DNA of 41,538 bases from Thermoplasmatales archaeon SW_10_69_26 (GTDB lineage Archaea; Thermoplasmatota; SW-10-69-26): NCBI GenBank assembly GCA_003009755.1, contig PXUB01000020.1:1-41538 (forward strand). Reading direction: 5' to 3'. Under the pieces are notes generated by a model. It ran no database searches, was not told the DNA's origin, and saw only the letters and a list, made by a program, of their open reading frames with translations. Of this stretch, positions 13,719 to 41,421 are shown one piece after another. Each line of letters begins with the position of its first letter. The first letter of the stretch is position 1. Made by a program: the position numbers and the translations under genes.

Positions 13719-13889
13719 CGGGCTGTCTCGTTAAGCAGGGGCCGCGAAGGACACGAAGGATCGCCAAGGCCACGAAGGGCCGGTGACTCGCCGCCGGGCG
13801 GCCTTGTCACAGCAGCTGCTCGCCGTTGTGCCCTGGCGTCCCGTCGCGTACTTGGTGGCCCCCCGCCCGTTTCATATCCTTACAGCGCG
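13719..13889. mobile_element. MITE-like element family A, copy 1 (171 bp)
   Basis: Ends CGGGCTGT...ACAGCGCG. Flanking direct repeat GCCCTGACAG (13709-13718) / GCCCTGACGG (13890-13899). Homologous to 26642-26806 and 39261-39428. Confidence 0.88.
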
Positions 13890-13952
13890 GCCCTGACGGT
13901 GCGAAAAAGTTTTCCTATTGTGATTTCCTATCATATCAGAGGAGGCCATGGT

Positions 13953-16385
13953 ATGGCGAGGAGAGCAGTAGCGGTAGTCGCATGCGTATTGTTGATCGCC
14001 TCGGTCCTTCCGACGGCGCTGGGGAGGCACTTCAGCGTCGGGACGCGGGACTCGGTCGGAACCGAAGCGGTCGAGACACCGAACGAGAAGAGCGTCACCG
14101 ACGCCAATCACGCCACGGGCGTGAGCGAGGAATGCTACGAGCCGGATGGCAACCTGACCCAAGACCAAGCCCAACGCTCGCTAGAGACAGACCCGTTCTG
14201 TGGGAAACTGATCTACCAGAGCAACTTCCCCGAGCTGGAGCACTCCAGCTCCCGCGACCAGGACCTGCGGTCCACGTCCGAGCTCACGATCGGGCAGTTC
14301 GACGTCATCGCGACTAGCGTGATCGACGAAGACGAGGAGCCCTGCGCGCCCTTCTGCCGGGACCAGCCGGCTGAGACGGGCAATCTCACCTGGCAAGCCG
14401 TCCACGAGTTCGGATCTGATGCCGGACTGACCGAGGATCCCGATTCGGCGGACGAGCAGAACGAGGGCCCGCGCGACCAGTTCTACGGGGCCTCCATCCA
14501 CATCCCGAAGGCATCCTACGTCCTCCAGCAGAACACCGATGCCTGGCGGATGAACGGCTGGTGGTCGCCGGACGTCACGCACAACTACGTCGCGTACCTG
14601 TACGACAGCGAGGGCAACCCCATCGGTGACGACGACCTCCAGCAAGACGTCCCCAAGCTGCAGGAGAAGAGTGAGCTGTCCGACGCCGCCGAACCGCGCG
14701 TGTGCGGTTGGTCGGAGGACTTCGAGTTCACGTCGCTCAACTTCGAGGGCGCCAACTGCGAGATCCTGTTCGAGTACCGGGAGCCCGGGAACCGAGCTCC
14801 CGAGGACTCGGATTACGATGAGGGGTACAACGATCCGTGCAAGTCGCCGACGTGGGTCTGTGGCGGGTTCTCCGGCGGAGCCTGGTACTCGCAAGCGTAC
14901 TGCCTCAATTGCCAGGCCTCGCAGGTGACCGGCCCCAGCGAAGGCACCTTCCAGTTCATCGAATGGCACTGGCTGGTGGCGCCTGCCCCATCGGACTGCG
15001 GCGGCACCGTCCAACCCGGCGTTGCCTTCGAAACCGATGCCGAGAACCCGTACCTGGCGCACGATCTCGACGTCTGGACGCAGCCGACGGATCTCAAGAG
15101 CAGCGGGACGGCTCGCTCGACCGCGAACGCGGAGGACTTCGCCTGGGACAGCGCGAACGCCGAGGCCGACCGGGCTGTGGAGGGGGTCGTCGACCAGCTC
15201 CCGACCATCCCCAGCGGACCGGACAACCCCGTGAACAACGCGACGGACGTCGAGGTCCCCTCCCAAGTCAGCAAGGCAGACCGCGTGGAGCCGAACGCGG
15301 ACCCCGTCGCTGGGCTCGGCGACACCAGTCAGTCGTTGCCCGAGAGCGGCGGCACGCTCGACCGCAACCTGGAGAACGCTTGCCAGAACCTCAATAGCAA
15401 CGAGGAGCCCGACACGGTCGATCCGTGGGTCGACCTCGTCGACGGCGAGGTCGACTCCCCATCCGAGCAAGGTAGCGACAGCGTCGCGCTATACGCCAAC
15501 GGCGACGAGACGCAGGACAACGAGAACAAGCCCGGACCCAACCTCTTCCGGACCGAGGGCAACGTGGGCTTGTTCACCGACAAGAACGACGACGGCGACT
15601 ACGACACGCTGAGCGGGAACCCGACCGTGCTCAGCACCCGATCGCCAGCCTCGCTCTCGAGCGACAAGTACGACGACAACAACATCAAGACGACCGGGGC
15701 TTACCCGATGCTCTGGGACGTCTGGCTCACGGAGAACGACAACGGTCAGACCGTCGTGGACGAGACCGGCGGCTGCCAGCTGTCCGACACGGTCACGATC
15801 TCCGGAGAGGCCAAGGCCGCTGGCTACGGCCCCAACACGGGTCTCTTCCAGGTGGTCTACCTGAACGAACCGACCACCGTCGTCCGCTCTGACACGGGGG
15901 AGACGCGGTCCTATCCCGGCGGGGACAACATCTACCTGTTCATGAGCCAGAGCGCTCGGCAGCAGTACAACCCGGACGACAGCTCGGCGAACGCCCTCGA
16001 CACGGCGATCGAAGACGCCATCCGTGCACTGCGGCTCGACATGGCCGACGATGCCGAGATCCAGATCCCCGGGGAGGACCTCGGCCTGGACTCCGACTAC
16101 TTCGGGCAATGTAGCGAGGACACGGGTGGCTTCACGCTCGAGTTCTCGTTCACGCACGACTGCAGCCTGGACTGCTCCGGCGACACCATCGTGACCGGCT
16201 ACACGTTCGAGGTCGAGCGACTCGACGGTACCCTGGGCGGTCGCGACGCGAGCTCGATCCCGCTGTTCGAGGTCGACAACCAAGCCTACGACTTCGGTCA
16301 GGGCGCCCAGACCTGGACCGACGTGGACCCGTTCGACAACAACCCCGATCGACAGGACGACGAGGACGACAGCCCACCGACGTGA
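13953..16385 (+). CDS. Large exported, highly acidic, Cys-containing protein (810 aa); candidate cell-surface/S-layer-like protein
   Basis: GGAGG SD, signal peptide MARRAVAVVACVLLIASVLPTALG and a D/E/N/S/T-rich mature region. AT-rich upstream region with TTTCCTAT twice. Confidence 0.85.
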   Translation: MARRAVAVVACVLLIASVLPTALGRHFSVGTRDSVGTEAVETPNEKSVTDANHATGVSEECYEPDGNLTQDQAQRSLETDPFCGKLIYQSNFPELEHSSSRDQDLRSTSELTIGQFDVIATSVIDEDEEPCAPFCRDQPAETGNLTWQAVHEFGSDAGLTEDPDSADEQNEGPRDQFYGASIHIPKASYVLQQNTDAWRMNGWWSPDVTHNYVAYLYDSEGNPIGDDDLQQDVPKLQEKSELSDAAEPRVCGWSEDFEFTSLNFEGANCEILFEYREPGNRAPEDSDYDEGYNDPCKSPTWVCGGFSGGAWYSQAYCLNCQASQVTGPSEGTFQFIEWHWLVAPAPSDCGGTVQPGVAFETDAENPYLAHDLDVWTQPTDLKSSGTARSTANAEDFAWDSANAEADRAVEGVVDQLPTIPSGPDNPVNNATDVEVPSQVSKADRVEPNADPVAGLGDTSQSLPESGGTLDRNLENACQNLNSNEEPDTVDPWVDLVDGEVDSPSEQGSDSVALYANGDETQDNENKPGPNLFRTEGNVGLFTDKNDDGDYDTLSGNPTVLSTRSPASLSSDKYDDNNIKTTGAYPMLWDVWLTENDNGQTVVDETGGCQLSDTVTISGEAKAAGYGPNTGLFQVVYLNEPTTVVRSDTGETRSYPGGDNIYLFMSQSARQQYNPDDSSANALDTAIEDAIRALRLDMADDAEIQIPGEDLGLDSDYFGQCSEDTGGFTLEFSFTHDCSLDCSGDTIVTGYTFEVERLDGTLGGRDASSIPLFEVDNQAYDFGQGAQTWTDVDPFDNNPDRQDDEDDSPPT

Positions 16386-16403
16386 TGGCCGTCCGCGGAT
16401 CGT

Positions 16404-16445
16404 AGGGCCCCACGGGCCCCTCCCCTCTTCTCCGTTCTCTTCTCG
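16404..16445 (+). terminator. Putative terminator
   Basis: GGGCCC-cac-GGGCCC hairpin followed by a T/C tract just after the stop of the 810-aa gene. Confidence 0.5.
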
Positions 16446-16479
16446 ACCCCACAGCGGCGGCTGGGGACGGACACCCGCG

Positions 16480-16700
16480 CGCCTCCGGCTCAGCGCTCGA
16501 AACGGGTTGCCGAGCACGGTGCCGAAGGCGAGCACGGCCCTCCGGGGTCGAGGATGCCGGTCAACGGACCCGGGACGAGGTCGAGCCCGATCGACAGCAA
16601 GGGGCCGGACGGGCGTCGCTTCGAACACCTGGCTGCCGACGGAGCCCAGCCCGATGACGGCAGGCAAGCCGGCGAAAACCGTCGTCGGATCCAAGGCCAC
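16480..16700 (-). pseudogene. Frameshifted N-terminal fragment of a cation:proton antiporter (CPA1/NhaP-like)
   Basis: MALDPTTVFAGLPAVIGLGSVGSQVFEAT in one frame continues as LLSIGLDLVPGPLTGILDP in another, resembling the first two TM helices of NhaP-type antiporters. Confidence 0.45.
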
Positions 16701-16766
16701 GGCTGGTCGACGACGAAGCCGCGGAAACCCGCCGCGACCCTGCTCGGGCAGCCGGGGCTTCGGGTC

Positions 16767-17156
16767 CTAAGCGATCCCGAGGACCTCGCGGGCCTGATCC
16801 GCGTCGTCAACCTGGATCACGATCTCGGGCTCCTTGTTGGAGCCGTTGGCCGTGCCGTACATGTTCTCGATGTTGATCCCCTCCTTGGCCAGCCGCTCGA
16901 GCATGCCGTGGAGGGCACCCGGTTGGTTGGGCAGGCCCAGCGTCAGCACCTCGCCGGTGCGGATCTGGAAGCCGGCCTCCTCGAGGGCCTCCTCGGCCTC
17001 GTGGAGGGGATGAGCACGGATGCGGGCGAACCCGAAGTCGTGCTCGCCTTCGACCATGATCGACTCGATGTTCACGTCCTCGTCGGCCAGGACGGCGGTG
17101 ATCTCCGACAAGGCGCCCGGTTCGTTCTCGATGAAGACGGTGAGCTGTCGGCCCAT
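16767..17156 (-). CDS. Tandem ACT domain protein
   Basis: QLTVFIENEPGALSEIT..L...VNIE and LPNQPGALHGMLERLAKEGINIENMY. Confidence 0.9.
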   Translation of the reverse strand: MGRQLTVFIENEPGALSEITAVLADEDVNIESIMVEGEHDFGFARIRAHPLHEAEEALEEAGFQIRTGEVLTLGLPNQPGALHGMLERLAKEGINIENMYGTANGSNKEPEIVIQVDDADQAREVLGIA

Positions 17157-17315
17157 GGAAAACGCAACATCGAACGGTAGTTGCGCTTTGGCCTTGAACG
17201 CATCGGTGGTGGCCGCGTCTCGACCACCTCGTGCCCGGCGTCGGGACCTTCCCTCGGTCCCTACGTCAGGCCCTCGACCCGGAGTATAAGGACGGGTAGG
17301 CACTCGTCGTCGCCG

Positions 17316-17849
17316 ATGGCGAAAGCTACGCTCGGCGGCGGCTGCTTCTGGTGCATCGAGGCTGCCCTCCAGCGGATCGAGGGCGTCGAGGAGGTCGTGC
17401 CCGGTTACGCCGGCGGCGAATCGGAGGATCCAACCTACCGCGAGGTGTGCGCGGGCGAGACCAGCCACGCCGAGGTCGTGCAGGTCACCTTCGACGGGGA
17501 CGAGCTCGGGTTCCGCGAGCTGCTGCACGTGTTCTTCTCGATCCACAACCCGACGACGAAGGACCGGGAAGGCAACGACGTGGGCTCGCAGTACCGCTCG
17601 ATCGTGCTCACGCACGACGACGATCAGCGATCGATCGTCGAGGACGTCATCGACGAGCTGGAGGAGGCCATCTACGACGACCCGATCGTGACCGAGGTCG
17701 AGCCCATAGAGACCTTCCACGTCGCCGAGGACGAGCACCAAGACTACTACGAGAAGAACCCCAGCCAGGGCTACTGCCGCGTCGTCATCGACCCCAAGAT
17801 CGAGAAGCTGCGCGCCCAGTGGAAGGACAAGATCGTCGAGGGCGCGTGA
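17316..17849 (+). CDS. msrA: Peptide methionine sulfoxide reductase A
   Basis: GGGCFWC, GYAGG..PTY.EVC, HAEVVQV, GNDVGSQYRS and AEDEHQDYY motifs. Confidence 0.98.
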   Translation: MAKATLGGGCFWCIEAALQRIEGVEEVVPGYAGGESEDPTYREVCAGETSHAEVVQVTFDGDELGFRELLHVFFSIHNPTTKDREGNDVGSQYRSIVLTHDDDQRSIVEDVIDELEEAIYDDPIVTEVEPIETFHVAEDEHQDYYEKNPSQGYCRVVIDPKIEKLRAQWKDKIVEGA

Positions 17850-17867
17850 GGGCGGACGAAGACGAGG

Positions 17868-18248
17868 TCACAGGCCCTCGACGGCGAGCCCGGGCACCAC
17901 CTCGAAACGCTCGTCGGACGAGAAGAGCACCTCGTCGTAGTGCAGCGCCGTCGTGGCGACTTGCAAGTCGTGCCATCCGAGGGTCCCCCCAGCCCTCATC
18001 AACTCGTGTTGGATGCGGGCGCTCTCGTCAGCCATTTGGCGGGTGAACGGCTCGAAGCCGACCGCTGCCTCCAGCGTCTCCCGAGCCTCATCGCGCTCTC
18101 GTGGTGGGAAACCCGAGAGGTACTCCGTCCAGACCGCCGCGGGAACCCTGACCGGCTCTCGACCGGCTTGGAGATCGAGGTATCTCTCCTCGGCCTTCCC
18201 CTTGCCTTGCTCGAGGGAGACGAGAAAGGTGGTATCGAGAACGGCCAT
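17868..18248 (-). CDS. vapC: PIN domain toxin (VapC)
   Basis: MAVLDTTFLV, E in TEYLSG, DLQVATTA and SSDERF. Confidence 0.9.
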   Translation of the reverse strand: MAVLDTTFLVSLEQGKGKAEERYLDLQAGREPVRVPAAVWTEYLSGFPPRERDEARETLEAAVGFEPFTRQMADESARIQHELMRAGGTLGWHDLQVATTALHYDEVLFSSDERFEVVPGLAVEGL

Positions 18249-18250
18249 CC

Positions 18251-18457
18251 TCAGGCCCCCGGACGATCGAGTCGATCGGCCTCGCGGATGTTCTCGCGGG
18301 CGTCCTCGATCTCCGAGGGTGAGCGCAGATCCTGGAGGTCCCTCAGATCCCCTCCCCCGAGCAGCCTCATGACCGTGTCGCTGTAGCTTTCTCCCGGACG
18401 TTTGGCGTTCGTGAGTCGCCGATACGCATCGTCCGAAAGCTGGACCATCCGAGTCAT
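18251..18457 (-). CDS. vapB: Archaeal VapB antitoxin (DUF217-like)
   Basis: MTRMVQLSDDAYRRLTNAKRPGESYSDTVMRL, directly upstream of the PIN gene. Confidence 0.88.
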   Translation of the reverse strand: MTRMVQLSDDAYRRLTNAKRPGESYSDTVMRLLGGGDLRDLQDLRSPSEIEDARENIREADRLDRPGA

Positions 18458-18603
18458 TAGAGACAACATACGTTTACGCCGTATATTGGTTTTATGCGTG
18501 GTGTGGAACGGGCGCGGCAGGTCTGCTGCGGTCCGCCGCCTGCCTCGGGCCCCTCTACCTTTCCTGCTCGTCGTTCGTCGCGGCTCCCGGAGGTCTGAGG
18601 GGC

Positions 18604-18981
18604 TCAGCCGTAGGTGATCGTCTCCTGGGCCGGGAAGTGGTGGGCGTTGCCCGTCACGATCGGGAGACCACCGCGGTTCTCGGCCACTCCTCCGATCAGC
18701 ACGTCGCTCCAACCCGGGAAGGTTCCCTCATCGAGCGTGCGCCCAGCGAGGGCGGCGGCCTCGCGGGCGTCCCCGGTTCGCAGCTCGACGACCTCACCGG
18801 CCCCTCGGAGCTGGTCGACGTCGCTTTGCGGATCCGAACAGCCGGCCAGGTACTCGGCGACCACGACCGTCGGGATGACGAGCAGCTCGTGGTCGGCCGC
18901 GAAGCGGTCGGCCAGGTCCCTGGCACCGTCGTTGCCTTTGGCGATGTCGACGAGGAAGGACGTGTCGACGACCACCGCCAT
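18604..18981 (-). CDS. vapC: PIN domain toxin (VapC)
   Basis: MAVVVDTSFLVD, VVAEYLAG, SDVLIGGVA and VTGNAHHF. Confidence 0.9.
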   Translation of the reverse strand: MAVVVDTSFLVDIAKGNDGARDLADRFAADHELLVIPTVVVAEYLAGCSDPQSDVDQLRGAGEVVELRTGDAREAAALAGRTLDEGTFPGWSDVLIGGVAENRGGLPIVTGNAHHFPAQETITYG

Positions 18982-19218
18982 TCAATCGTCTCCCTGACCG
19001 AACAGCTCGTCCAGCTTGGCCCGATCGGAGGCTCGGCCGCGGGCCCGCAGTTCCTCGAGGTCGAAGTCCTCGCTAGGCTCGCTGAGTTCCAACAGCTTGC
19101 GGGGATCGCGTCGCTCGGCGGCGATCCGGATCACGGTGTCGCTGTAGGACTCGTCCTCGCGCTTGAGGGCCGTCAGTAGGCCGTAGGCGTCCTCGCTGAG
19201 GTGAACGGATCGCGCCAT
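18982..19218 (-). CDS. vapB: Archaeal VapB antitoxin (DUF217-like)
   Basis: MARSVHLSEDAYGLLTALKREDESYSDTVIRI; paralogous to 18251-18457. Confidence 0.88.
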   Translation of the reverse strand: MARSVHLSEDAYGLLTALKREDESYSDTVIRIAAERRDPRKLLELSEPSEDFDLEELRARGRASDRAKLDELFGQGDD

Positions 19219-19359
19219 TCTACACACCTGTGGTGTGTGGAACATCTTGAATGTTCTGACGGATCGGGGACGAAACTGCGACTGTTGTTCTCGGCGCGAC
19301 GATCCGTCCTCCATCCCGCCGCCTCGACCGGCCTGTCGAAGAGCACGCCCTCCCGGGAG

Positions 19360-19390
19360 CCAACGCTCAAGTACGGGGGCCCGCTACCGG
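19360..19390 (+). promoter_or_regulatory. Putative promoter of uvrA (motif shared with uvrB)
   Basis: ccaacgctcaagtacgggggcccgctaccgg; see 11230-11260. Confidence 0.55.
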
Positions 19391-19403
19391 CGAGTTGCAC
19401 ATC

Positions 19404-22262
<2,859 letters not shown>

Positions 22263-22322
22263 CCGGTCCGCTGGGTTCGGTGGACGCTCGGCTGCCTCCT
22301 CGCGGGTCCAGGGTTGTCCTCG

Positions 22323-22442
22323 TCAGGGACCGGTGTCGGGGTTGCAGCTTCGGCACACGCTGGCCGAGACCTGACGGGCGACAGCCTCGGGGACCCGGGA
22401 GATCGTCGCCCCGCACGACCGACATCGGAAGGTTCCGCTCAC
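22323..22442 (-). CDS. Putative 39-aa zinc-finger microprotein (CxxC-x19-CxxC)
   Basis: (M)SGTFRCRSCGATISRVPEAVARQVSASVCRSCNPDTGP*. GTG start preceded by SD-like GGTGAGG. Confidence 0.55.
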   Translation of the reverse strand: MSGTFRCRSCGATISRVPEAVARQVSASVCRSCNPDTGP

Positions 22443-22588
22443 GGTTGCCTCACCGAGGCTCACCGCGTGGTCCCGGTTAACGAGGGCTTGGAGTGCCCCA
22501 GGCCCGCGCCACCCCCAGCGCCCAACCGACCCTCGCCCACGGACGGGCAAACAGACCATTTCCCCTCCGTAGGGGTCCACCTTGACGC

Positions 22589-22801
22589 TCATCCGTCCTG
22601 CCGGCGGGTGCCCATCCCCCAGCCCATGATGACCATGCCGAGGAGGAACAACGTGGCGCCCCCGACGAGGGCGGTGCGATCCTGGCCGCCGGCGGCCAGG
22701 TCCACCCCCTGGAACAGCCACCACATCCCGCCGACGGTCATCAGCCCGCCGGTCCAGAAGACCCAACGCACGCCAGCGCCAGCGCCCGGCCGAGGTTTCA
22801 C
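22589..22801 (-). CDS. Small two-TM membrane protein
   Basis: WVFWTGGLMTVGGMWWLFQG and ALVGGATLFLLGMVIMGWGM hydrophobic helices. Start uncertain. Confidence 0.6.
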   Translation of the reverse strand: MKPRPGAGAGVRWVFWTGGLMTVGGMWWLFQGVDLAAGGQDRTALVGGATLFLLGMVIMGWGMGTRRQDG

Positions 22802-22886
22802 GGTTTCGGCCCCGAAAGGACCCAAACGTGGGTTTGGTGGGGGCCAAGCTTGACGATGCGGCCCCCGTATGCGGGCGCGAGCCGCC

Positions 22887-23270: not shown

Positions 23271-23273
23271 GCC

Positions 23274-24297: not shown

Positions 24298-24298
24298 G

Positions 24299-25185: not shown

Positions 25186-25935
25186 ATGGAGATCCTCGGG
25201 GCGAGCCAGCAGGCGGCCGAGCGCTGCCAGGCGTTGGACTTCGACGAGCCGGTCACCTGCACGTACAACCCGCTCGACTACGCCTGGGAGGGCTACCGCG
25301 CCTACCTCGAGCGCTTCGCGGACGAGCCCAAGGACGTGCTCATGGTCGGCATGAACCCCGGCCCGTGGGGGATGGGGCAGACCGGTGTCCCGTTCGGCGA
25401 CGTCGACCGCGTGCGCGAGGGCATGGGCATCGCCGACATCGAGGTCGACACGCCCGAGACCTACCTCGAGGACGAGCGACCCGTGCACGGGTTCGACTGC
25501 CCGCGCAACGAGCGCTCGGGGACGCGACTGTACGAGGGCCTGGCCGACCGCTTCGGCACGCTCGAGGACGCCTACGAGCACCTGTTCGTCGCCAACTACT
25601 GCCCGCTGTTGTTCTTCGACGACGAGGCCTCGAACATCACGCCGCCTCGGCTGCGGAAGGCCGACCGCGAGGCCCTGTTCGCCATCTGCGACGAACGCCT
25701 GTCGCGCTTGATCGACCACCTGGACCCGGACGCGCTCGTCGGCGTCGGCCGCTTCGCCGAGCGCCGGATCGAGGCCGTGCTCGCGGACCGCGGCGAGGAC
25801 CGGCAGGTCGAGTACCTGTTGCACCCGAGCCCGGCCAACCCGATGGCGAACAAGGACGGCGGCGAATACTGGCAGGCTCAGCTCGCCGAGACGCTGGAGG
25901 CGTGCGGGCTGGAAACCGAGGCGGTCGAGGCCTAG
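25186..25935 (+). CDS. SMUG1-like (family 3) uracil-DNA glycosylase
   Basis: YNPLDYAW, GMNPGPWGMGQTGVPFG, E.SG.RL, NYCPLLF, NITP and HPSPANP motifs. Confidence 0.92.
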   Translation: MEILGASQQAAERCQALDFDEPVTCTYNPLDYAWEGYRAYLERFADEPKDVLMVGMNPGPWGMGQTGVPFGDVDRVREGMGIADIEVDTPETYLEDERPVHGFDCPRNERSGTRLYEGLADRFGTLEDAYEHLFVANYCPLLFFDDEASNITPPRLRKADREALFAICDERLSRLIDHLDPDALVGVGRFAERRIEAVLADRGEDRQVEYLLHPSPANPMANKDGGEYWQAQLAETLEACGLETEAVEA

Positions 25936-25990: not shown

Positions 25991-25996
25991 CACGCG

Positions 25997-26613: not shown

Positions 26614-26641
26614 CCGCCCTCCTCCGCCGCTCTCCCGCCCA

Positions 26642-26806
26642 CGGGCTGTCTCGTTAAGCAGGGGCCGCGAAGGACACGAAGGATCGCCACGGCCACGAAC
26701 CTGTGACTCGCCGCCGGGCGGCTTTGGCACGGCAGCTGCTCTCCTTTGTGCCCTGGCGTCCCGTCGCGTACTTGGTGGTCCCCCCGTTTGTTATCCTTAC
26801 AGCACG
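26642..26806. mobile_element. MITE-like element family A, copy 2 (165 bp)
   Basis: Ends CGGGCTGT...ACAGCACG. Perfect 9-bp flanking duplication TCCCGCCCA (26633-26641 / 26807-26815). Confidence 0.9.
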
Positions 26807-26858
26807 TCCCGCCCACCCCGCAACCTTCTTGATGCCCAGGCCGGGATAGCTGTCCCAC

Positions 26859-32248: not shown

Positions 32249-33022
32249 ATGGGCCCAGGGACCCCGAGCGGACGAACGAAGCAACACGAGGAGCCGGGCG
32301 TCGAGTCGACGAAGGCCGCGCTGACCGGCGACCTCGAGGTCGACCTCGAGCCCGACGACGTGTGGACGCTCGGCCAGCTCATCGAGGCCGACGTGGCCAG
32401 CTTCCCCCCAGGGATCGCGCAGGAGATCGTGACCGGCTACCGGATCCTGCAGGGAGCCGGCTACCAGCCGGCCGGCGACACCGAGGTCCAGCTGCAGGGC
32501 GCCGGCGACGCGACCGGCCTGCCGTTGCCGGAGGGGGCCCTCGACGAGGACGAGGGTAGCATCTTCTCCCGCCAGATCGTGGTCACCGAGCTGACCGAGA
32601 CCGAGCCGGCCGAGGAGGAGGCAGAGACCGAGCCCGCCGCGCCCACGCGTCAGGAGGCTGCCGGTGCCGGGGGCCAGCCGGCGGCTGGGGCCGCCCCCGT
32701 GGCCGGGGAGCAGGCCGAGCGCCTGGCCGACGCCGTCGAGCAGCTGGCCGAGGGACTCGAGCGCTCGGCCGCCGACCTCACGCAGGACACCCAGGCCGCC
32801 ACCGACACCCAGGTGGTCCCAGCCACGGACACGCGGCTGGCGAGGGTGACCGTGGACTGGGCGTTGATCGGGCTGGGGCTGACCGTCTCGACGATGTTCG
32901 TCATCGCGGCCGGGTTCCTGGCCGATCCCGTGTTCGCCATCCTCGGCCTGGCGCTGCTCGGGTTCGCCGCCTTCCAGTCCTACCCCTACCTCGCCGACAC
33001 CGACCGAGGTGATCGCCCGTGA
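32249..33022 (+). CDS. Hypothetical membrane protein (two C-terminal TMs)
   Basis: Acidic soluble region followed by two hydrophobic helices. SD-like GAGGTGA at the 3' end couples it to the next gene. Confidence 0.75.
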   Translation: MGPGTPSGRTKQHEEPGVESTKAALTGDLEVDLEPDDVWTLGQLIEADVASFPPGIAQEIVTGYRILQGAGYQPAGDTEVQLQGAGDATGLPLPEGALDEDEGSIFSRQIVVTELTETEPAEEEAETEPAAPTRQEAAGAGGQPAAGAAPVAGEQAERLADAVEQLAEGLERSAADLTQDTQAATDTQVVPATDTRLARVTVDWALIGLGLTVSTMFVIAAGFLADPVFAILGLALLGFAAFQSYPYLADTDRGDRP

Positions 33023-33270
33023 CGCGCGAGAGCCCAGCCCCCGAGCCGGTGGCCGGCACGGAGATGCCCCTGCGCCACGCCGGCACGTTCTTCGTGTTCT
33101 GCGTGGCCGGCGCGGTGATCGTCGCGTTGGTCACCGGTGATCCCTCGCTGCTGTGGGCCTACGTCGGCGCGTTCACGCTGACCGTGGCGATCGGGGTCGG
33201 GCTGGCGTTGCGCGCCGACCAACACAACCGATCGCTGGCCGCCCGCCGCTCACAGCCGCCGCTGCCGTAG
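33019..33270 (+). CDS. Small two-TM membrane protein
   Basis: GTGA overlap with the upstream gene; two hydrophobic segments. Confidence 0.7.
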   Translation: MTRESPAPEPVAGTEMPLRHAGTFFVFCVAGAVIVALVTGDPSLLWAYVGAFTLTVAIGVGLALRADQHNRSLAARRSQPPLP

Positions 33271-33356
33271 GCGATCAATCGAGGCGCGTCGTGGTGGGTG
33301 ACCCCACGTTGCCATCAAGCAAGGACTTATGTAGCAGCCGCGAGCGTCTTCGGAGC

Positions 33357-33647
33357 GTGAGCGAGGCGGCGCTCGAGTCCCCTGGTCTGACGCCGAGCCC
33401 TCCGGAGGGGCTGCCCCCTTCGTCACAGGAGGTCTTCGAGCTGCTGGCGCTGGAAGGCCCCATGACGCACCGGGAGCTCGTCGAGCACACCGAGATGCCC
33501 GCCCGCACGGTCCGGTACGCCGTGCGGCGCCTGAAGGAGGCCGACTGTCTGGGGGAGCGCGTCAACCTCAAGGACTGCCGCCAGCGGTTCTTCTTCGTGA
33601 AACGCGAGGCGTCGGCCGAGGGCGGCTCGGCGCGGGCCGCGATCTGA
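33357..33647 (+). CDS. Archaeal winged HTH (MarR-like) regulator
   Basis: LPPSSQEVFELL..EGPMTHREL..T.MPARTVRYAVRRL...DCRQ. Confidence 0.88.
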   Translation: MSEAALESPGLTPSPPEGLPPSSQEVFELLALEGPMTHRELVEHTEMPARTVRYAVRRLKEADCLGERVNLKDCRQRFFFVKREASAEGGSARAAI

Positions 33648-33650
33648 GCC

Positions 33651-34859
33651 TCAGCCGGCGACGGCGGTGCGGATCTCCGCGAGCGTGTCGAGGATCGTCT
33701 CGACCTCGTGCATCGTGTTGTAGGCGTACAGCGAGGCCCGGCACGAGCCGCCGAGGCCGCGAGCGTTGAACCAGCTGTCGAGGCAGTGCAGGCCGGCGCG
33801 CACGCAGACGTCGGCCTCGTCCTCGAGCACGACGGCCAAATCGTGGATGTCCAACCCGTCCATCGCGAAGGACACGATGCCGTTGCCCTTGGCCTCCGGC
33901 GCGCCGTACACATCGCAGCCCAGCGCCTCGATGCCCTCCTGCAGACGCCGGGACAGCTTCTCCTCGTGGTCGCTGACCGCGGCCCGGTCCATCTCCTCGA
34001 GGTAGGTCAGCGCGGCGTGGGTGGCTTGGATGCCGGCGAAGTCCTGCAGCCCGGCCTCGAAGCGGCCCGGTGCATCCAGCAGCTCGTGGTCGGTCAACGT
34101 CGTCGATTCGATCGTGGCGCCGCCGGCGACGAGCGGGTCCATCTCGTCGAGGATCTCGGCCCGGCCCCACAGGACGCCGACGCCGGTGGGCCCCATCGCC
34201 TTGTGGACGCTGAACGCGAACAGATCGACGCCCAGCTCGGCGACGTCGACGGGGACGTGGGGGGCCGACTGGGCGCCGTCGGCGAGCACGAGCGCGTCGT
34301 GGTCGTGGGCGATCTCGGCGACGGCCTGCATCGGGGTGATGTAGCCGTCGAGGTTGCTCATGTGCACGAGGCTGACCAGGGAGACGTCGCCCTCCTCCAT
34401 GCGGGCCTTGTACGCCTCGAGGTCGAAGGCCCCCTGCTCGGTCGAGCCCACGGCCTCGTGGTGGACGCCCCCCTCGGCCAGTCGTTGGGCCGGGACCAGC
34501 CCGCTGTTGTGCTCGCGGTCGCTGGTGAGCACCGTGGAACCGGTGGGCAGGTCCAGGCCCTTCGCGGCGAGGTTCATCGCCTCCGTCGTGTTCCGGGTGA
34601 ACACGCACTCGTCGGCGCTGTCGGCGCCGAGGAAGGAGGCCACGGTCGCTCGCGAGCGCTGCACCGCCTCGTCGACCTCGCCGGCCAGGCGGTAGGTCGA
34701 GCGGCCGGCGCACACCGGCGTCTGCTCGTAGTAGCGGTTCAGCTCCTCGATCACCGGGTCGGGCTTGAGCGTCATGCAGGCGTTGTCGACGTAGATCGGC
34801 GGCTCGTCGTCCTGCAGCAGCGGGATGTCCTCGCGGACGTCGTGGGGATCGAAGCTCAC
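33651..34859 (-). CDS. Cysteine desulfurase-like, SufS-type (class V aminotransferase)
   Basis: YVDNAC, FTRNTTEA, EHNS, DGAQS, SVHK (PLP lysine), RFEAG and RAGLHC. Confidence 0.93.
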   Translation of the reverse strand: MSFDPHDVREDIPLLQDDEPPIYVDNACMTLKPDPVIEELNRYYEQTPVCAGRSTYRLAGEVDEAVQRSRATVASFLGADSADECVFTRNTTEAMNLAAKGLDLPTGSTVLTSDREHNSGLVPAQRLAEGGVHHEAVGSTEQGAFDLEAYKARMEEGDVSLVSLVHMSNLDGYITPMQAVAEIAHDHDALVLADGAQSAPHVPVDVAELGVDLFAFSVHKAMGPTGVGVLWGRAEILDEMDPLVAGGATIESTTLTDHELLDAPGRFEAGLQDFAGIQATHAALTYLEEMDRAAVSDHEEKLSRRLQEGIEALGCDVYGAPEAKGNGIVSFAMDGLDIHDLAVVLEDEADVCVRAGLHCLDSWFNARGLGGSCRASLYAYNTMHEVETILDTLAEIRTAVAG

Positions 34860-34937
34860 CGTGGGTCCCTCCAGGCCCCAAGGGGCCAGAGCACACGCCG
34901 GTTAGCGCCGCGGGGCCTTCAACCTGCTGGCGGGGCC

Positions 34938-35225
34938 TCAGCTCTCGGCCAGCGCAGCGAGGATGGCGCGGGCCGCCTCCTCGGCCTCGCCCTGGTCGTC
35001 GGTCTTGGCCAGCAGGCGGCCGGATTCGAACACGGAGACCTCGCAGGGGCCGGGATCGACGACGAGCAGCACGCCCGCGTCGGTCACGATCTCCACGCCG
35101 GCGTCCGCCAGCCGCTGGCTCTCGGTGGAGAGATCGAGCTCGCGGGCGTCCTCCGGGGTGACCTCGTAGCCGCCCTTGCCCGAGCACAGTTCGACCGTGT
35201 GACCGGCCAGCGGGTCGGGGCCCAT
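34938..35225 (-). CDS. Small hypothetical protein resembling the C-terminal domain of long MoeB/ThiF proteins
   Basis: ELCSGK..YEVTP...LDL...VSVFESGRLLAKTDD..EA; same strand and immediately upstream of the desulfurase. Confidence 0.65.
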   Translation of the reverse strand: MGPDPLAGHTVELCSGKGGYEVTPEDARELDLSTESQRLADAGVEIVTDAGVLLVVDPGPCEVSVFESGRLLAKTDDQGEAEEAARAILAALAES

Positions 35226-35673
35226 CGAAGTCGTCTGAGGAGGCCATGGGCCTTCAAGCTACGGGGAGGCCTCGACCCGCGGAGCGCGGGCTACTCCTCG
35301 AGCTCTCTCACTCGCGCCGGACGAAAGCGCGGATCCCTCGGCCTGCGATAACAGCGATCGTCTGGGGGGCTACGACGGACACTGCTGCCCCCCTTTTTGA
35401 TGAAAATTTCCTGGCCAACCGCTTGACGCGGATACCACGGAACCCGGAAATTTATCGAAGGAACGGGTTGCCCGGCGAGCGGGCCCCGACACGGGAGCGC
35501 TGGGGCTCGTAACCGGGGCTGTCGGCAGCGGCGGGCTCGCGCACGGCCTCGTCGAGATCGTTCACGCCGGGCATGGGTGGACTCCCCGTCCTCCCCCACC
35601 CCCTCAAGAACGGATATGGTACAGCCGTTCACCAGGAGTGGCGAACAGGCCACCTCAACGCTGAAGTACGCCC

Positions 35674-38082
35674 GTGGGTCTCCCTGGCGCGGGTGGCACA
35701 CTGAGGCGAGCCGTCACCGTCCTCCTGGCGCTCACGCTCGTGACCGTCCCGCAGGCGCTTGCCGGCACGTCCGGCGGCCAGGACGGTCCCGCCATCGACT
35801 GGTCCCCCGGGCCGGTCGTCCTCGCGAACGACGAGATCCGGTTCACGACCTCCGCCGACGCCGACGAGCTCGTGTGGCGGTTCCCGGACGGATCGCAGGC
35901 GACCGGGGCGAGCACGACGCACGCCTTCGACGAGCCGGGCGAGGCGACGGTCGAGCTCACGGCCGTGCGCGATGGCGAGCGGTCCACCACGAGGGCGACG
36001 GTGCCCGTGCAGGGCTCCTACCGCCAGGATCAGATCGTCAAGGAACAGGTCTTCGTCGAGACCTCGGGCCGGATGGACCTCGAGGCCGAGCACGCGGGCG
36101 AACAGCACGCGTCGACGAGCGACGCGGCCCCCGAGGACACCCCATTGGCGAACGACGACATCCTGATCGACGCCACGATCTACCACCCCGACCCGGACGT
36201 GGCCGAGGGCCCGTTCCCGGCGATGATGGCCACGCACGGCTGGGGTGGCCACAAGTCCCAGTACGAGGGCTACGGCGGCTCGTTCGCCGAGGAGGGCGTG
36301 GGCGCCTACGCGCAGGAGGGCTACGTCGGCGTCGTGTACAACACGCGCGGCACCGCGAACTCGACCGGCTACCAGCGGGCCTACGACCCCCAGCAGGAGA
36401 TGCAGGACGCCCGCGATGTCCTGACGTGGCTGGCCGACAACGACGCCCACGACGGCGACGTGTACTCCGGCCACGGGATGCGGTCGAACACGACCGTGGA
36501 CTTCGAGGTCGAGCTGGACGGTCCCGGCGACCCGCACGCGGGCATGTTCGGCCAGTCCAACGGCGGCATCACGACGCTGCTGCTCGCCGGCCAGGACGAC
36601 CGCCTGGACGCGGCCGCGCCCGGCGGTGTCTACCACAACCTCACGTTCTCGATGCTGCCCAACGGCGTGCCGAAGTCGGTGCTGATCGCCGGCATCGCCG
36701 CCGGCGCCGCTGCGAACGTCGGGGTCGAGCAGCTCCAGCGCGGCCACACCGAGGCGTTCGCGACGAACCCGGGTCTGTGGGGCACCGTCGACACCGAGAT
36801 CCCCAGTTGGATGGTGCAGGGCTTCACGGGCGCCGAGACCGACGTCCGCCAGGACTTCCGCGACCGGTCACCGATGACGTACAACGACGCCATCGACGTC
36901 CCCACGTTCCTCTCCCACGGCTGGATGGACCAGTTCTTCGAGCCGCCGAACCCGCTGCACAACTACCAGCAGATCGCCGAGAACCCCTACTTCTCGCAGT
37001 TGGAGGAGCCCGAGCGCGAGCGGCAGCTCAAGCTCGTGATGCAGCCGATGGGGCACGACTTCTACGAGCACAAGGTCCAGGACATGCGCGTGCCGTGGTT
37101 CGACCACTTCCTCAAGGGCCACGACCTCGACGACACCTACCACGGCGTCGTCGACCGCTACAACGGCGACAACCCCGAGGACGTGATCGACGAGCCCGCG
37201 GCCACGTACAGCCACGTCGTCGACCAGCCGCCGATCCTCTTCCACGAGGACCACCCCGACGACGAGCGCTGCGTCTCGATGGGCGTCCCCCAGGGCTGCA
37301 GCCACCCCGGCACCGAGTACGCCTGGTACGAGGAGGCCAGCCTCGAGGGCTGGATCGCCGACAGCCCCGACCACTGGCAGGACCCCTACACGGGCTTCCA
37401 CTACCGCGCCTACGACGACGCGATCTGGACACAGGACAGCCCCGAGCGGTTCCACCTGCGCGCCGACAACGGCCTCTCGCGGGAGGCCCCCAGCCAGTCG
37501 CTGCTCGCGCAACCCGACCGCGGCGACGTGATCGCCAACGTGCCCGGGCCCGGCTGGACGACGTGGAACCCGGCCAGCGACTTCCAGGGCACGCCCTGGG
37601 AGCAGCTCGACCACGCCCCCGCCGCCACCGTCAGCTACGAGAGCCCACCGCTGGCGGAGGATCTGACCGCGATCGGGCACGGCGAGGCCAACCTCGACGT
37701 CGTCGTCAGCGCCAACGGGCCGCTGGACTCCGGCACGGGCGACGTCCACTTCGTGGTGAAGGTCTGGGACGAGACCCCCGAGGGCGAGCGCGAGCTCGTG
37801 ACGCGCGGCTACCAGGCGATCGGGCTGGAAGACCGGATCGAGGATCCCAGCGCCGAGATCGCGCGCGAGGTCACGGTGCCGCTGTACTCGATGGATCGCG
37901 TGATCCCGGAGAACCACCGCCTCGTCGTCCAGGTCACGCACTCCGACATGACCTACGTCGCCCCCTCGCTCGTGCCGCACACGACGCTGATCCAGCACAC
38001 GCCCGAGAACCCCTCCTGGGTGGACCTGCCCACGCGGACCGACGCCGAGCTGGCGGAGGCCGCCTCGCCCGTCGCCGGGTGA
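35674..38082 (+). CDS. Exported PKD-domain + CocE/NonD (S15) family hydrolase
   Basis: Signal peptide, PKD-like WRFPDG...TTHAF..PG...VELT, THGWGG, NTRG, nucleophile GQSNGG, HGWMD and a C-terminal PepX-like domain. True start may be CTG 35701. Confidence 0.88.
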   Translation: MGLPGAGGTLRRAVTVLLALTLVTVPQALAGTSGGQDGPAIDWSPGPVVLANDEIRFTTSADADELVWRFPDGSQATGASTTHAFDEPGEATVELTAVRDGERSTTRATVPVQGSYRQDQIVKEQVFVETSGRMDLEAEHAGEQHASTSDAAPEDTPLANDDILIDATIYHPDPDVAEGPFPAMMATHGWGGHKSQYEGYGGSFAEEGVGAYAQEGYVGVVYNTRGTANSTGYQRAYDPQQEMQDARDVLTWLADNDAHDGDVYSGHGMRSNTTVDFEVELDGPGDPHAGMFGQSNGGITTLLLAGQDDRLDAAAPGGVYHNLTFSMLPNGVPKSVLIAGIAAGAAANVGVEQLQRGHTEAFATNPGLWGTVDTEIPSWMVQGFTGAETDVRQDFRDRSPMTYNDAIDVPTFLSHGWMDQFFEPPNPLHNYQQIAENPYFSQLEEPERERQLKLVMQPMGHDFYEHKVQDMRVPWFDHFLKGHDLDDTYHGVVDRYNGDNPEDVIDEPAATYSHVVDQPPILFHEDHPDDERCVSMGVPQGCSHPGTEYAWYEEASLEGWIADSPDHWQDPYTGFHYRAYDDAIWTQDSPERFHLRADNGLSREAPSQSLLAQPDRGDVIANVPGPGWTTWNPASDFQGTPWEQLDHAPAATVSYESPPLAEDLTAIGHGEANLDVVVSANGPLDSGTGDVHFVVKVWDETPEGERELVTRGYQAIGLEDRIEDPSAEIAREVTVPLYSMDRVIPENHRLVVQVTHSDMTYVAPSLVPHTTLIQHTPENPSWVDLPTRTDAELAEAASPVAG

Positions 38083-38121
38083 CCCCAAGCCTCAGGCGCG
38101 TGGGTGGCCTACCCCGATGCG

Positions 38122-39258
38122 ATGCGCCGCCCGCTCGCGTTCCTGCTTCTCCTCGTCGTCGTGGCCGGCTGCACCCAGGCTCCGCCGCCGACCGACGGGG
38201 ATCTGCCTCGCGTGGACGAGGCCGACCCGGACGAGATCGCCATCCTCGCTGGGGACCGCGACACGATCTGGGAGCTGGCCTTCGCGCCGGACGGGCGGGT
38301 GTTCTTCACCGAGCGCGGCGGCACGATCGGCGTGATCGCGAACGGCGAGGCGGAGACCTGGCGCGAGATGCCCCAGACCGTCGAGCGCGGCGAGTCGGGC
38401 CTGATGGGGCTGGCCTTGCATCCCGACTTCGAGGACGAGCCGTGGCTGTACGTCTGCCAGACGTACCGAGACGGAGACGACGCCTTGCGCAACCGCGTCG
38501 CCCGCGTCCCGGCCGACGACCGCGAGGCCGTCCCCGAGCCCGTCGTGCGCGGCATCGACGCCAGCCAGATCCACGACGGCTGCCGGCTCGGGTTCGGGCC
38601 CGAGGGGCTGTTGTACGTCACGATGGGCGACGCCGCCGACGCCTCGCGCGCCCAGGACGAGGGCAGCCGCAACGGCAAGGTGCTGGCCTACACCGCCGAG
38701 GGCGAGCCAGCCGGCGCCGGCGAGGAGGGCTGGCATCCGGCCGTGTTCACGATGGGCCACCGGAACCCGCAGGGCCTGGTCTTCCACCCCGACACGGGCA
38801 CGCCCTACGCGAGCGAGCACGGGCCCGAGAACCACGACGAGGTCAACCGGCTCCGCGAGGGCGCCAACCACGGCTGGCCCGAGGTCCGCGGCATGGACGA
38901 GGGCGGGGGCGCCTACGAGCCGGCGGTCTGGACCACGGGGCCCGACGCCGACGAGAACGTCGCCCCGGCCGGGGCCGCCTTCGTCGACCAGCCCAACAGC
39001 TCGCTGCACGGGGCCCTGCTCGTGGCGACGTTGAAACAGGCCCAGCTGCAGGTCCTCGAGATCGACGAGGCGGACGGCGAGGCCGAGGTGGTCGACGAGC
39101 ACGTGCTCTTCGACGAGCGCTTCGGTCGGCTGCGCGCCGCCGTCTGGGAAGACGATGCGCTGTACGTGTCGACGAGCAACCACGACGGGCGCGGCACGCC
39201 TGGGCCGACCGACGATCGGATCTTGCGCATCCCGTTGCCCGCGATCGAGGACGGGTAG
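38122..39258 (+). CDS. PQQ-dependent aldose sugar dehydrogenase (YliI/Asd-like) lipoprotein
   Basis: Lipobox VVAGC, FAPDGRVFFTER, GESGLMG, HDG.RL.FGP.G.LYVT.GD, GHRNPQG, EHGP and GANHGWP. Confidence 0.93.
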   Translation: MRRPLAFLLLLVVVAGCTQAPPPTDGDLPRVDEADPDEIAILAGDRDTIWELAFAPDGRVFFTERGGTIGVIANGEAETWREMPQTVERGESGLMGLALHPDFEDEPWLYVCQTYRDGDDALRNRVARVPADDREAVPEPVVRGIDASQIHDGCRLGFGPEGLLYVTMGDAADASRAQDEGSRNGKVLAYTAEGEPAGAGEEGWHPAVFTMGHRNPQGLVFHPDTGTPYASEHGPENHDEVNRLREGANHGWPEVRGMDEGGGAYEPAVWTTGPDADENVAPAGAAFVDQPNSSLHGALLVATLKQAQLQVLEIDEADGEAEVVDEHVLFDERFGRLRAAVWEDDALYVSTSNHDGRGTPGPTDDRILRIPLPAIEDG

Positions 39259-39260
39259 CC

Positions 39261-39428
39261 CGGGCTGTCTGGTTAAGCAGGGGCCGCGAGGGACACGAAG
39301 GATCGCCAAGGCCACGAAGGGCCTGTGACTCGCCGCCGGGCGGCTCTGTCACGGCAGCTGCTCCCCTTTGCACCCTGGCGTCCCCTCGCGTCCTTGGTGG
39401 TCCCCCCGTTTCTTATCCCTGCAGCGCG
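39261..39428. mobile_element. MITE-like element family A, copy 3 (168 bp)
   Basis: Ends CGGGCTGT...GCAGCGCG. 8-bp duplication GGGTAGCC (39253-39260 / 39429-39436) contains the upstream gene's TAG. Confidence 0.9.
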
Positions 39429-39475
39429 GGGTAGCCGGCAGGCAAGCCTTTCCGGGCGACCGGGCTAGGCCATCC

Positions 39476-39901
39476 ATGTTCACGAAGACCCAGAAGGTCT
39501 ACTTCGGCCACATCGACAAGGCCGGCATCGTCTACCACCCCCACTTCATCGACTACTTCAACCAGGCCTACGAGGACTTCCTCGAGGAGCTGGGCTTCGA
39601 CGAGAAGAACTTCCGGTCCGACCACGGGGTGCGGGTGCCGGTCGTGAACGTCGACGTGGACTTCGAGGAGCCGATGGGCAGCGGCGACCGGCTCGAGATC
39701 CACGTGACCGTCCGCAAGCTGGGTCGCTCCTCGATGGTGTTCCACTTCGACACGACCGACGCCCGCGAGGACCACACCGTCGTCGAGGGCGAGGTGACGC
39801 GGGTCACGGTCGACGACAGCTTCCAGCCGACCCCGATCCCCGAGGCGATCCGGCAGGCGCTGGAGCCCCACCTCGAGGACGACGACGAGACTGCCGCCTA
39901 G
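39476..39901 (+). CDS. Acyl-CoA thioesterase (4HBT/YbgC hot-dog fold)
   Basis: VYFGHIDKAGIVYH motif, PVV...DF..P...GD and LGRSS. Confidence 0.92.
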   Translation: MFTKTQKVYFGHIDKAGIVYHPHFIDYFNQAYEDFLEELGFDEKNFRSDHGVRVPVVNVDVDFEEPMGSGDRLEIHVTVRKLGRSSMVFHFDTTDAREDHTVVEGEVTRVTVDDSFQPTPIPEAIRQALEPHLEDDDETAA

Positions 39902-39952
39902 GTCGTCGCGGGGTTGAAGGCCTGCCGCGAGCCTGCCGAACCACCCCCGAGC

Positions 39953-40870
39953 ATGCCAGAGGCCACCTCGCGCCGCGAGGACCGAGCCCCGTCGGGCGAG
40001 GGATCGTCCCGGGAGCCCGGGACCGAGCGCAGCCCGATCCTCGTCCCGCTTCTCACCTACGTCACGCTCCGGTTCTACCTCTACTACTGGGTGTGGACGG
40101 CGAGCGAGGAGGTCGAGCGCTTCGACCCGTACACGCGGTCCCCGCACGCGCCGGCCCGCTGGGGCGTACCCTTGGCGATCGCTGGCCTCGCGGTCGTCGG
40201 CACCAGCCTCGCCGTGGTGGTGCTGAGCGACGTGCTCGTGCCGGTCGAGCAGATCCTGCAGGGCCAGCTCGGGCTCTCGCTGGCGCTCGTGGGGATGGCG
40301 ATCTTCCTCGGTGGGGTCGCCTACCTGGCGGGATCGGTCCTGCTGTGGGTGGCCTACTGGCGGATCTGGCGGAGCCTGGAGACGCACGAGCGCAACCTCG
40401 GGTACGAGCCGGTCACGCCCGGCGCGATGCTGGCCGTGTGGGTCGGTGCGATGTTCGTCGTGGGCCTGATCCCGTTGGTCGGGTGGGCCATCCAGCTGGC
40501 AGCTCGCTCCTACGTCCTCTACCGCACGCAACGCGGCCTCAACCGTGTGTGGACCGGCGCCGGGGGCGGTTACGAGGCTACGCCGCCCACGACGCCTTTG
40601 ACGCCGATGACGCCGATCGAGCCGGGCTCGGATCCGCGCACGCCGACGCCGCGCTCGCCCGATCGGCCGCCGCTGCGAGCCGGCGAGACCGGCGTGGCCC
40701 CGCCCTCGGCCGTGGGCACCGACGACGGCCACGGCAGACCGCGCGAGGACCGGGTGCCGTTCACGTGCCAGGCGTGCGGCAACCACGAACGGATCCCGGC
40801 GCGTCGGCCGCTAAGGGTGAACTGTCCCAGCTGCGGGGAGAGCGAGGTGCTGCGGGAGACGGAGGGATAG
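39953..40870 (+). CDS. Membrane protein (DUF4234-like) with C-terminal zinc ribbon
   Basis: LLTYVTL.FY.YYW....EE motif, 4-5 TMs, Pro-rich linker, CQAC...CPSC. Confidence 0.75.
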   Translation: MPEATSRREDRAPSGEGSSREPGTERSPILVPLLTYVTLRFYLYYWVWTASEEVERFDPYTRSPHAPARWGVPLAIAGLAVVGTSLAVVVLSDVLVPVEQILQGQLGLSLALVGMAIFLGGVAYLAGSVLLWVAYWRIWRSLETHERNLGYEPVTPGAMLAVWVGAMFVVGLIPLVGWAIQLAARSYVLYRTQRGLNRVWTGAGGGYEATPPTTPLTPMTPIEPGSDPRTPTPRSPDRPPLRAGETGVAPPSAVGTDDGHGRPREDRVPFTCQACGNHERIPARRPLRVNCPSCGESEVLRETEG

Positions 40871-40882
40871 GGGACGATCAAG

Positions 40883-40912
40883 GCACGAGGGAACGCGAAG
40901 GAACCACGAAGG
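40883..40912 (+). repeat. 9-11 bp periodic CACGAAGG-like repeats upstream of the GxxExxY gene
   Basis: gcacgaggg-aacgcgaagg-aaccacgaagg; same unit as inside MITE family A. Confidence 0.6.
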
Positions 40913-41040
40913 CCCCAGAGACGGCGGACGGGAACAAGCGGGGGTCCCGATGGGACGGGGAGTTCCCTCATCGCTCCCGGATAGGAGCGAAGGATGCCTC
41001 GTCCGCCGGCTCGTCCACGACGGATGCCGAGAGCCCGGGC

Positions 41041-41421
41041 CCGCTGCCCGAGGCGGTCGAGGAGACGGCGAGCGACTGCCTCGAGGCCGCCTTCCGGGTT
41101 CAAAGCGACCTGGGATCTGGACTTCTGGAGAAGGTGTACCGGGACGCGCTAGCCGTCGAGCTCCGGCATCGCGGCCTCGACGTGGGGACCGAGGTGACCG
41201 TTCCGGTCTCGTATCGCGACCAAGCTCTCGGCGTCGGCCTTCGCCTCGACATTCTGGTCGCGGACTGCGTGGTCATCGAAGTGGAAAGCGTGGATGCTTT
41301 CGCGTCCGCTCACACGGCTCAGACCCTCACGTATCTGGAGGCCACGGGGAAGCGTCTTGGCTTTCTGCTGGGTGCTGAACGCGGCCTTTCAATCGGGCTT
41401 CGTGCGGCCAACGGGCCGTGA
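41041..41421 (+). pseudogene. GxxExxY protein (PD-(D/E)XK nuclease superfamily), probably degenerate
   Basis: AFRV...LGSGLLEKVY..AL..EL, VPVSY, RLDILV..CVVIEVES and H.AQ.LTYL. No in-frame ATG (SD+ATG at 40994 is out of frame); ExK is ExE; the usual L.NF motif is absent. Confidence 0.8.

Follow-up and report, generated by a model that had tools for sequence, protein, structure and literature searches.

The window analysed here, the whole of contig C20 (PXUB01000020.1, 41,538 nucleotides) of Thermoplasmatales archaeon SW_10_69_26, contains three copies of a miniature inverted-repeat transposable element (MITE), designated family A, and, near its right end, the remains of a gene for a GxxExxY protein preceded by an array of short repeats. 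The genome comprises 2.82 Mb in 49 contigs with 69% G+C and 95% completeness. It encodes ribosomal protein L31e, which was restricted to archaea in the control panel, and the public sequencing runs containing the window are labelled halite metagenomes. Family A is probably a chimeric non-autonomous transposon, in which the ends of an insertion sequence (IS), designated IS-A, enclose a hairpin of the GxxExxY type without an open reading frame (ORF). The features concerned in the window are as follows.

13719..13889, + strand: family-A MITE copy 1, with GCCCTGAC duplicated on both flanks; between IS-type left and right ends lie four units (13742-13778), a central ~45 nt and four inverted units (about 13823-13858)
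26642..26806, + strand: family-A MITE copy 2, with a 9-bp duplication, TCCCGCCCA, at 26633-26641 and 26807-26815
39261..39428, + strand: family-A MITE copy 3, with GGGTAGCC duplicated on both flanks
40869..40912, + strand: upstream arm of the GxxExxY cassette, AGGGG and four CACGAAGG-type units, collinear with the MITE left arm
41026..41370, + strand: GxxExxY gene (PF13366 / TIGR04256), read as a pseudogene, in a frame running from 40996 onward
41371..41538, + strand: dispersed repeat X, which interrupts the GxxExxY gene; the contig ends within this repeat

The unit strings that an earlier note on this DNA had placed at 13742-13778 and 40883-40912, and an inverted stretch in the right half of the element, were exact, the degenerate inverted stretch of copy 1 lying at 13831-13858. 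Across the 2.8-Mb genome family A gave 47 BLAST matches, 38 of them full length with a mean pairwise identity of 0.907. Copies sit in intergenic DNA beside gene ends; copy 3 of the window, for example, was inserted at the very end of the 35577-39258 ORF, directly behind its stop codon. The 168-nt consensus is non-coding and consists, in order, of a left end of ~22 nt, AGGGG and four units (CGCGAAGG, CACGAAGG, CGCCAAGG, CACGAAGG), a ~45-nt centre that contains a small hairpin, four units in inverted orientation (CCTTTGTG, CCCTGGCG, CCTTCGCG, ACTTGGTG) and a right end of ~27 nt. Both the four direct and the four inverted units are of the type C-R-C-G/C-A-A-G-G.

The 9-mers abutting the element were identical in 22/38 full-length copies and matched at 8 of 9 positions in 10/38, giving a 9-bp target duplication in 32/38, while 2000 controls examined with the same ±2-nt slack yielded 3/2000 identical pairs and 14/2000 at 8 of 9. 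Six copies were without a duplication: two had swapped half-sites, one lay beside a run of N, one was the inner member of a tandem and two had no good match. The swapped copies, C29:70403-70573 and C38:104297-104470 (C numbers are contigs of this genome), each carry the other's flanking 9-mers (GCCCACCGG / GCCTCCCGG), which points to the footprint of recombination between copies, i.e. an inversion or translocation. At C6:21088-21387 an element and a half stood in tandem, positions 1-134 being fused directly to a full copy, with a single GGGTTCCCC duplication around the whole. Contigs of four halite-metagenome runs broke at MITE copies, and among the pieces and joints displayed none bridged or skipped one. 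By all criteria tested, family A is a true MITE: it is short, non-coding and present in many dispersed copies, it is flanked by a target duplication of fixed length, and its termini match those of an IS.

Outside family A, its end motifs gave three left-end matches genome-wide, two of which head an ~800-bp repeat, IS-A. The copies of this element are given below.

C38:59696-60500 and C41:50946-51749: IS-A, 805 bp, with a single ORF
C36: IS-A copy that lacks its left end
C37: IS-A fragments

The IS-A transposase gene is open in two copies, frameshifted in a third and present twice more as a fragment. The ORF encodes 238 amino acids with a DET...D...N-x2-E motif and a K seven residues past the E, and it matched NF033587 (IS6 family transposase) with an E value of 6e-21. 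IS-A has inverted termini of ~20 nt that share their sequence type with the MITE ends: positions 1-39 of family A matched its left end with z 5.7-6.3, and 0/200 shuffles scored as high. This match of the termini explains both the transposon-type ends and the copy number of the MITE. By inspection, no duplication was seen at the C38 or C41 copy of IS-A. The only PF01609 (IS5-like) element, on C32, was rejected as a partner, because its ends are unrelated and the 12 nt that it has in common with family A fall within its ORF. No match to the IS256-type transposase (PF00872) was found in the genome.

The interior of family A did not align to IS-A. An origin from the inside of an ordinary IS, which the earlier note had set against its own proposal, found no alignment (MITE interior versus whole IS-A, z about 0), and the score of the array alone against the IS-A subterminal region was reached by 411/500 and 209/500 shuffles. 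The array has its counterpart at the GxxExxY gene. The strict tandem unit CRCGAAGG-N1-3-CRCGAAGG gave 35 matches in 2.8 Mb on both strands; 34 of these are in family A, and the sole match outside it, at 40894-40912, is upstream of the GxxExxY gene of the window. About 0.06 matches were expected by chance by our own arithmetic from base composition, so that a chance origin of this distribution is excluded at genome level. The evidence from single units inside the window is weaker: 13 were present where 6.4 would be expected, and 2/100 shuffles reached that count. The MITE left half is collinear with the upstream arm of the window gene over AGGGG, the four units and the next ~20 nt (z 6.8, a score reached by 0/300 shuffles), and the MITE right half aligned to the downstream arm kept by the 3′ remnant of that gene on C8 (z 4.4, 1/300 shuffles). 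When the AGGGG anchor was removed, the MITE array still aligned to the GxxExxY arm, with 0/500 shuffles reaching the score.

These results bear on the simplest alternative, that family A is an ordinary IS6-derived MITE whose interior resembles a GxxExxY arm through a coincidence of G+C-rich short repeats. Its termini do match IS-A, one ACACGAA word is common to the IS-A left subterminal region and the MITE, and the enrichment of single units in the window is modest; but coincidence accounts poorly for a tandem unit found 34 times in family A and once at a GxxExxY gene, for two arms collinear with the two arms of that gene, and for an array that fails to align to IS-A. Already disfavoured, it is improbable.

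A PF13366 profile search located GxxExxY loci on C36, C30, C20 (the window) and C35, together with a 3′ fragment on C8. At C36, C30 and C35 the gene is preceded by an array of 8-10-nt units and followed by an inverted one; the window gene retains the upstream arm only and the C8 fragment the downstream arms only. The units are of the CACRGAGG type at C36, C30 and C35, and of the CACGAAGG type at the window gene, the C8 fragment and family A. In a genome of the same family and another genus, a hairpin of ~105 nt has the identical unit order without IS ends. Since the strict tandem unit is confined to family A and the gene's upstream arm, and the arms are collinear, the reading of the family-A interior as an ORF-less hairpin of the GxxExxY-bracket kind is supported on sequence grounds. 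The gene on C35 is split by another MITE (C35:11510-11724) of ~180-200 nt, with inverted ends and a CCCTTGCGC duplication, of which four other near-full copies are present in the genome.

The window ORF scored 107.6 bits against TIGR04256 (cut-off 35) and 105.3 bits against PF13366, and its motif reads GLLEKVY. Its upstream arm begins at the preceding ORF's stop codon, and the PF13366 match, which starts at 41065, lies 153 nt past the three-unit array 40883-40912. The frame offers no ATG, GTG or TTG as a start from 40846 up to the motif. Members of the family conserve the D...ExK residues in their alignment; the catalytic Lys of ExK, otherwise nearly invariant there, is Ser (ExS) in the window gene. 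The 3′ end of the gene is cut at 41370 by repeat X, which begins at 41371. Judged from these lesions, the gene is a dead pseudogene. In run X2, one contig, from a related strain, matches the gene as far as 41370 and then extends for another 102 letters. Repeat X is about 170-260 nt long and gave 13 BLAST matches, with an ~80-nt indel among copies; the window copy is 99% identical to C2:59653-59820, and other matches lie on six more contigs. The 3′ fragment on C8 is 100% identical to the window gene over 72 nt (41299-41370), and its own 3′ end, read by eye, has a frameshift ahead of the canonical C-terminus. Contigs C20 and C8 have identical overlaps of 72 nt and 64 nt. From the C8 fragment to the contig end (C8:19955-22809), the ORFs tried gave no Pfam match.

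The repeat bracket is widespread in the family. PF13366 matches were present in 14/41 genomes, this set being the studied genome and 40 relatives. For the 29 loci with sufficient flank, the best inverted match between 250 nt upstream and 250 nt downstream was compared with that of 1000 control intervals drawn from the studied genome, and 25/29 loci exceeded the maximum of the controls. The four that failed were the truncated window gene, one locus with a downstream array only and two with none nearby. An independent bacterial set was obtained with the window protein as query (25 loci, 22 with sufficient flank); 10/22 scored above all 80 shifted controls and 13/22 above their 95th percentile. 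It includes metagenome-assembled genomes labelled Brevundimonas, Bacteroidota, Ignavibacteria, Anaerolineae, Verrucomicrobiota and Abditibacteriota. The statement in the earlier note that GxxExxY genes are often flanked by such repeats is thus borne out, in 25/29 and 10/22 loci. Matches to the core C-R-C-R-R-A-G were counted on both sides of the genes, upstream + downstream.

Archaeal set, 29 loci: right orientation 40 + 47, wrong orientation 7 + 7
Bacterial set, 22 loci: right orientation 39 + 51, wrong orientation 11 + 17

The core is strongly oriented relative to the gene; the background in the studied genome is 0.17 matches per 250 nt per strand. In a poorly resolved tree of 30 proteins, with 13/27 inner branches open, sister pairs mostly have common units; one pair (L030/L045) does not. 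The association of nuclease and array is well supported, a mechanistic partnership of the two being putative. No paper on flanking repeats was found in a search of the literature on GxxExxY, PF13366 or TIGR04256.

Loose units form 43 genomic clusters, each of at least two units, outside family A; few of these have a strong partner arm. Those with one are the three GxxExxY cassettes, an ORF-less hairpin at C36:36926-37199 (~215 nt between arms) and a pair on C29 (C29:20677-22135), in which well-matched CACRGAGG-type arms lie 1.4 kb apart around a 215-amino-acid ORF of unknown family. A solo CACRGAGG arm at C17:9284-9319 follows a nucleotidyltransferase/HEPN-like pair, tentatively assigned by eye. 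The other clusters are solo or decayed, some of them beside unrelated genes. The CACRGAGG-type hairpins have no IS-type ends, and no clean duplications were seen around them (inspection only).

A second alternative is that the hairpin acts as RNA, the paired arms being a processing site, stabiliser or terminator, so that family A spreads a regulatory hairpin. The arms are able to pair into a long imperfect stem, and the copies are intergenic and beside gene ends; but the fold of family-A copy 1 was no better than that of shuffles (+ strand, z -0.27; - strand, z -1.10), and a search of the window with Rfam at gathering thresholds returned nothing. Of the mismatches between arms at 25 loci, 32 were sense-strand wobble-compatible and 35 antisense-compatible (binomial p 0.81), showing no sense-strand G-U bias, and a further 109 were transversions. 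No RNA run was among the public runs listed with the window. Taken together, the mismatch pattern, folds and Rfam result indirectly favour conserved units, putatively DNA binding sites, over conserved RNA pairing, and a role as RNA appears as unlikely as coincidence. On the protein side, the predicted fold of an intact GxxExxY paralogue (predicted local distance difference test score, pLDDT, 95) matched in Foldseek the Cas4 proteins SSO0001 (E 5e-4) and Pcal_0546, lambda exonuclease and archaeal Hjc. These matches of a predicted structure are weak and suggest a generic PD-(D/E)XK fold; no solved structure was matched by sequence.

The least probable alternative, hardly to be favoured, is that GxxExxY itself moves family A in a REP/RAYT-like manner (repetitive extragenic palindromes and their associated tyrosine transposases), the arrays being working sites and the 47 copies nuclease-driven spread: oriented units do bracket GxxExxY genes in two domains of life, ORF-less versions of the bracket exist, and no match to the Y1 transposase (PF01797) was found in this 95%-complete genome, but the ends and 9-bp duplications belong to a DDE-type IS present in the genome, CACRGAGG-type hairpins without such ends showed no clean duplications on inspection, and the cognate gene is truncated and has neither a start codon nor the catalytic Lys. 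The MITE lends no support to a GxxExxY-driven mobile system, because a DDE insertion sequence explains its mobility; and since the element combines IS ends with an ORF-less hairpin, its spread says nothing about GxxExxY activity. Of the empty cassette in transposon ends proposed in the earlier note, the anatomy of a direct and an inverted arm stood up to the alignments described above. Its use of the MITE as evidence of GxxExxY-driven mobility did not, in view of the IS-A ends, the 9-bp duplications and the dead gene.

If family A is a chimera of IS-A ends and a GxxExxY-type hairpin, its outer ~22 nt (left) and ~27 nt (right) would be IS-A termini, and the DDE transposase of IS-A would move it in trans, creating the 9-bp duplications. 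Positions about 19-146, in which a short centre separates four oriented 8-10-nt units from four inverted ones, are not of IS origin, and their closest relative appears to be the bracket of the now dead GxxExxY gene of the window. The interior may be a deleted copy of that window cassette, or an empty version of it, that was enclosed by IS ends; the enclosed hairpin would then have spread as a passenger to about 47 copies. In the wider module, GxxExxY genes of Archaea and Bacteria lie between upstream and inverted downstream arrays of the C-R-C-R-R-A-G core. The nuclease may recognise the units as double-stranded or hairpin DNA, and gene and arms may be inherited or moved together as one selfish cassette.

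Several results weigh against this proposal. The IS-A transposase scored 75.1 bits against NF033587, below the curated NCBIfam cut-off of 125, and 14.5 bits against PF13610 (cut-off 27, E 0.038), and the family-A duplication is 9 bp, as against the 8 bp given for IS6 in the account cited (PMC7986276). IS-A shares with IS6 its size and its single DDE ORF and departs from that family in the model cut-off and the 8-bp duplication; from its sequence it is distantly IS6-like, not a certified family member. The last 27 nt of family A aligned weakly to the right terminus of the C38 copy of IS-A (z 2.2, 12/200 shuffles reaching the score) and not at all to the C41 copy (z -0.6). An IS-A copy bearing the hairpin, which would be an intermediate, was not found in the genome. 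Family A was not found in the 40 relatives searched, none of which is a close relative, and its left-end motif had 0 matches in two public collections (genome contigs and metagenome contigs). Arrays that share a unit always align, so collinearity shows the kind of repeat more surely than descent. Clear arms within 250 nt were missing at 4/29 loci of the archaeal set and 9-12/22 bacterial loci. Finally, which enzyme moves what, and the binding or cleavage of the units by GxxExxY, we infer.

Family-A ends around a GxxExxY ORF, the occupied counterpart of the empty cassette, or around any ORF, were not found in an end-motif search of the genome. Four short matches to family A were obtained in the 40 relatives, and three of them were rejected as chance matches within coding DNA.

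Other repeats and calls in the window were as follows. A dispersed repeat of ~75-84 nt at 41-115 and 13570-13645 gave 42 BLAST matches genome-wide; many of these lie 40-270 nt from contig starts, so this repeat probably breaks the assembly. Two copies of a 259-nt direct repeat (20918-21176 and 21941-22199, 70% identity, 1023 nt apart) lie in ~1000-codon ORFs at 19173-22262, which looks like an internal gene duplication. ARAGORN called a tRNA with a four-base anticodon at 25615-25691 on the - strand; the call lies inside long ORFs, Rfam had no tRNA match, and it is probably false.

A broader proposal is made more tentatively, as a possibility less likely than the origin of family A argued above: GxxExxY and its oriented arrays may form a nuclease-plus-iteron selfish cassette in two domains, the protein recognising both its own flanks and hairpins without a gene; in this archaeon one such hairpin would have been captured by IS6-type ends, so that ~47 potential nuclease sites were spread by an unrelated transposase. 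For this widespread family of small nucleases, the oriented repeat bracket in Archaea and Bacteria provides a concrete substrate to test, and the family-A MITE demonstrates that the hairpin exists without its gene. It also calls for caution with pairs of repeat and enzyme: a repeat can reach high copy number on the ends of another element, and copy number alone therefore does not identify the acting enzyme.

Four known systems may be compared. The ORF-bearing intervening sequences of 23S rRNA genes carry a small ORF in the loop of a long inverted repeat. GxxExxY elements differ from them in that they are not in rRNA and that evidence of pairing at the RNA level was not found. Cas4 / RecB-like and Hjc-type nucleases match the predicted fold of the intact paralogue as PD-(D/E)XK proteins; unlike them, GxxExxY proteins are only ~130 amino acids long, with no further Pfam or NCBIfam domain reported, and the function of PF13366 / GxxExxY is listed as unknown in the paper cited (PMC3424549).

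IS6 elements are described as ~800 bp long with 8-bp duplications and rare MITEs, two such MITEs in ISfinder being mentioned (PMC7986276). Like family A, IS6-derived MITEs are small, non-coding and multi-copy, with target duplications on their flanks and terminal inverted repeats matching an ~800-bp single-ORF IS of the same genome. Family A differs in its 9-bp rather than 8-bp duplications, in a partner transposase of 75 bits against a cut-off of 125, and in an interior that appears to be a foreign array hairpin instead of joined IS ends.

The closest layout is that of REP/REPIN sequences with their RAYT (Y1 HUH) enzymes, where a small gene is flanked by an inverted short repeat that also occurs in dispersed gene-less hairpin doublets. 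The GxxExxY gene is likewise flanked by the repeat of gene-less doublets, but its product is a PD-(D/E)XK nuclease and not a Y1 HUH transposase, each of its arms is an array of 3-6 units, all 8-10 nt long, and not one palindrome, and the amplified family-A copies have DDE-type ends and duplications. Because the enzyme class differs, the GxxExxY bracket is not a member of the REP/RAYT systems despite its layout; a REP/RAYT-like system of GxxExxY and its arrays is nevertheless plausible.

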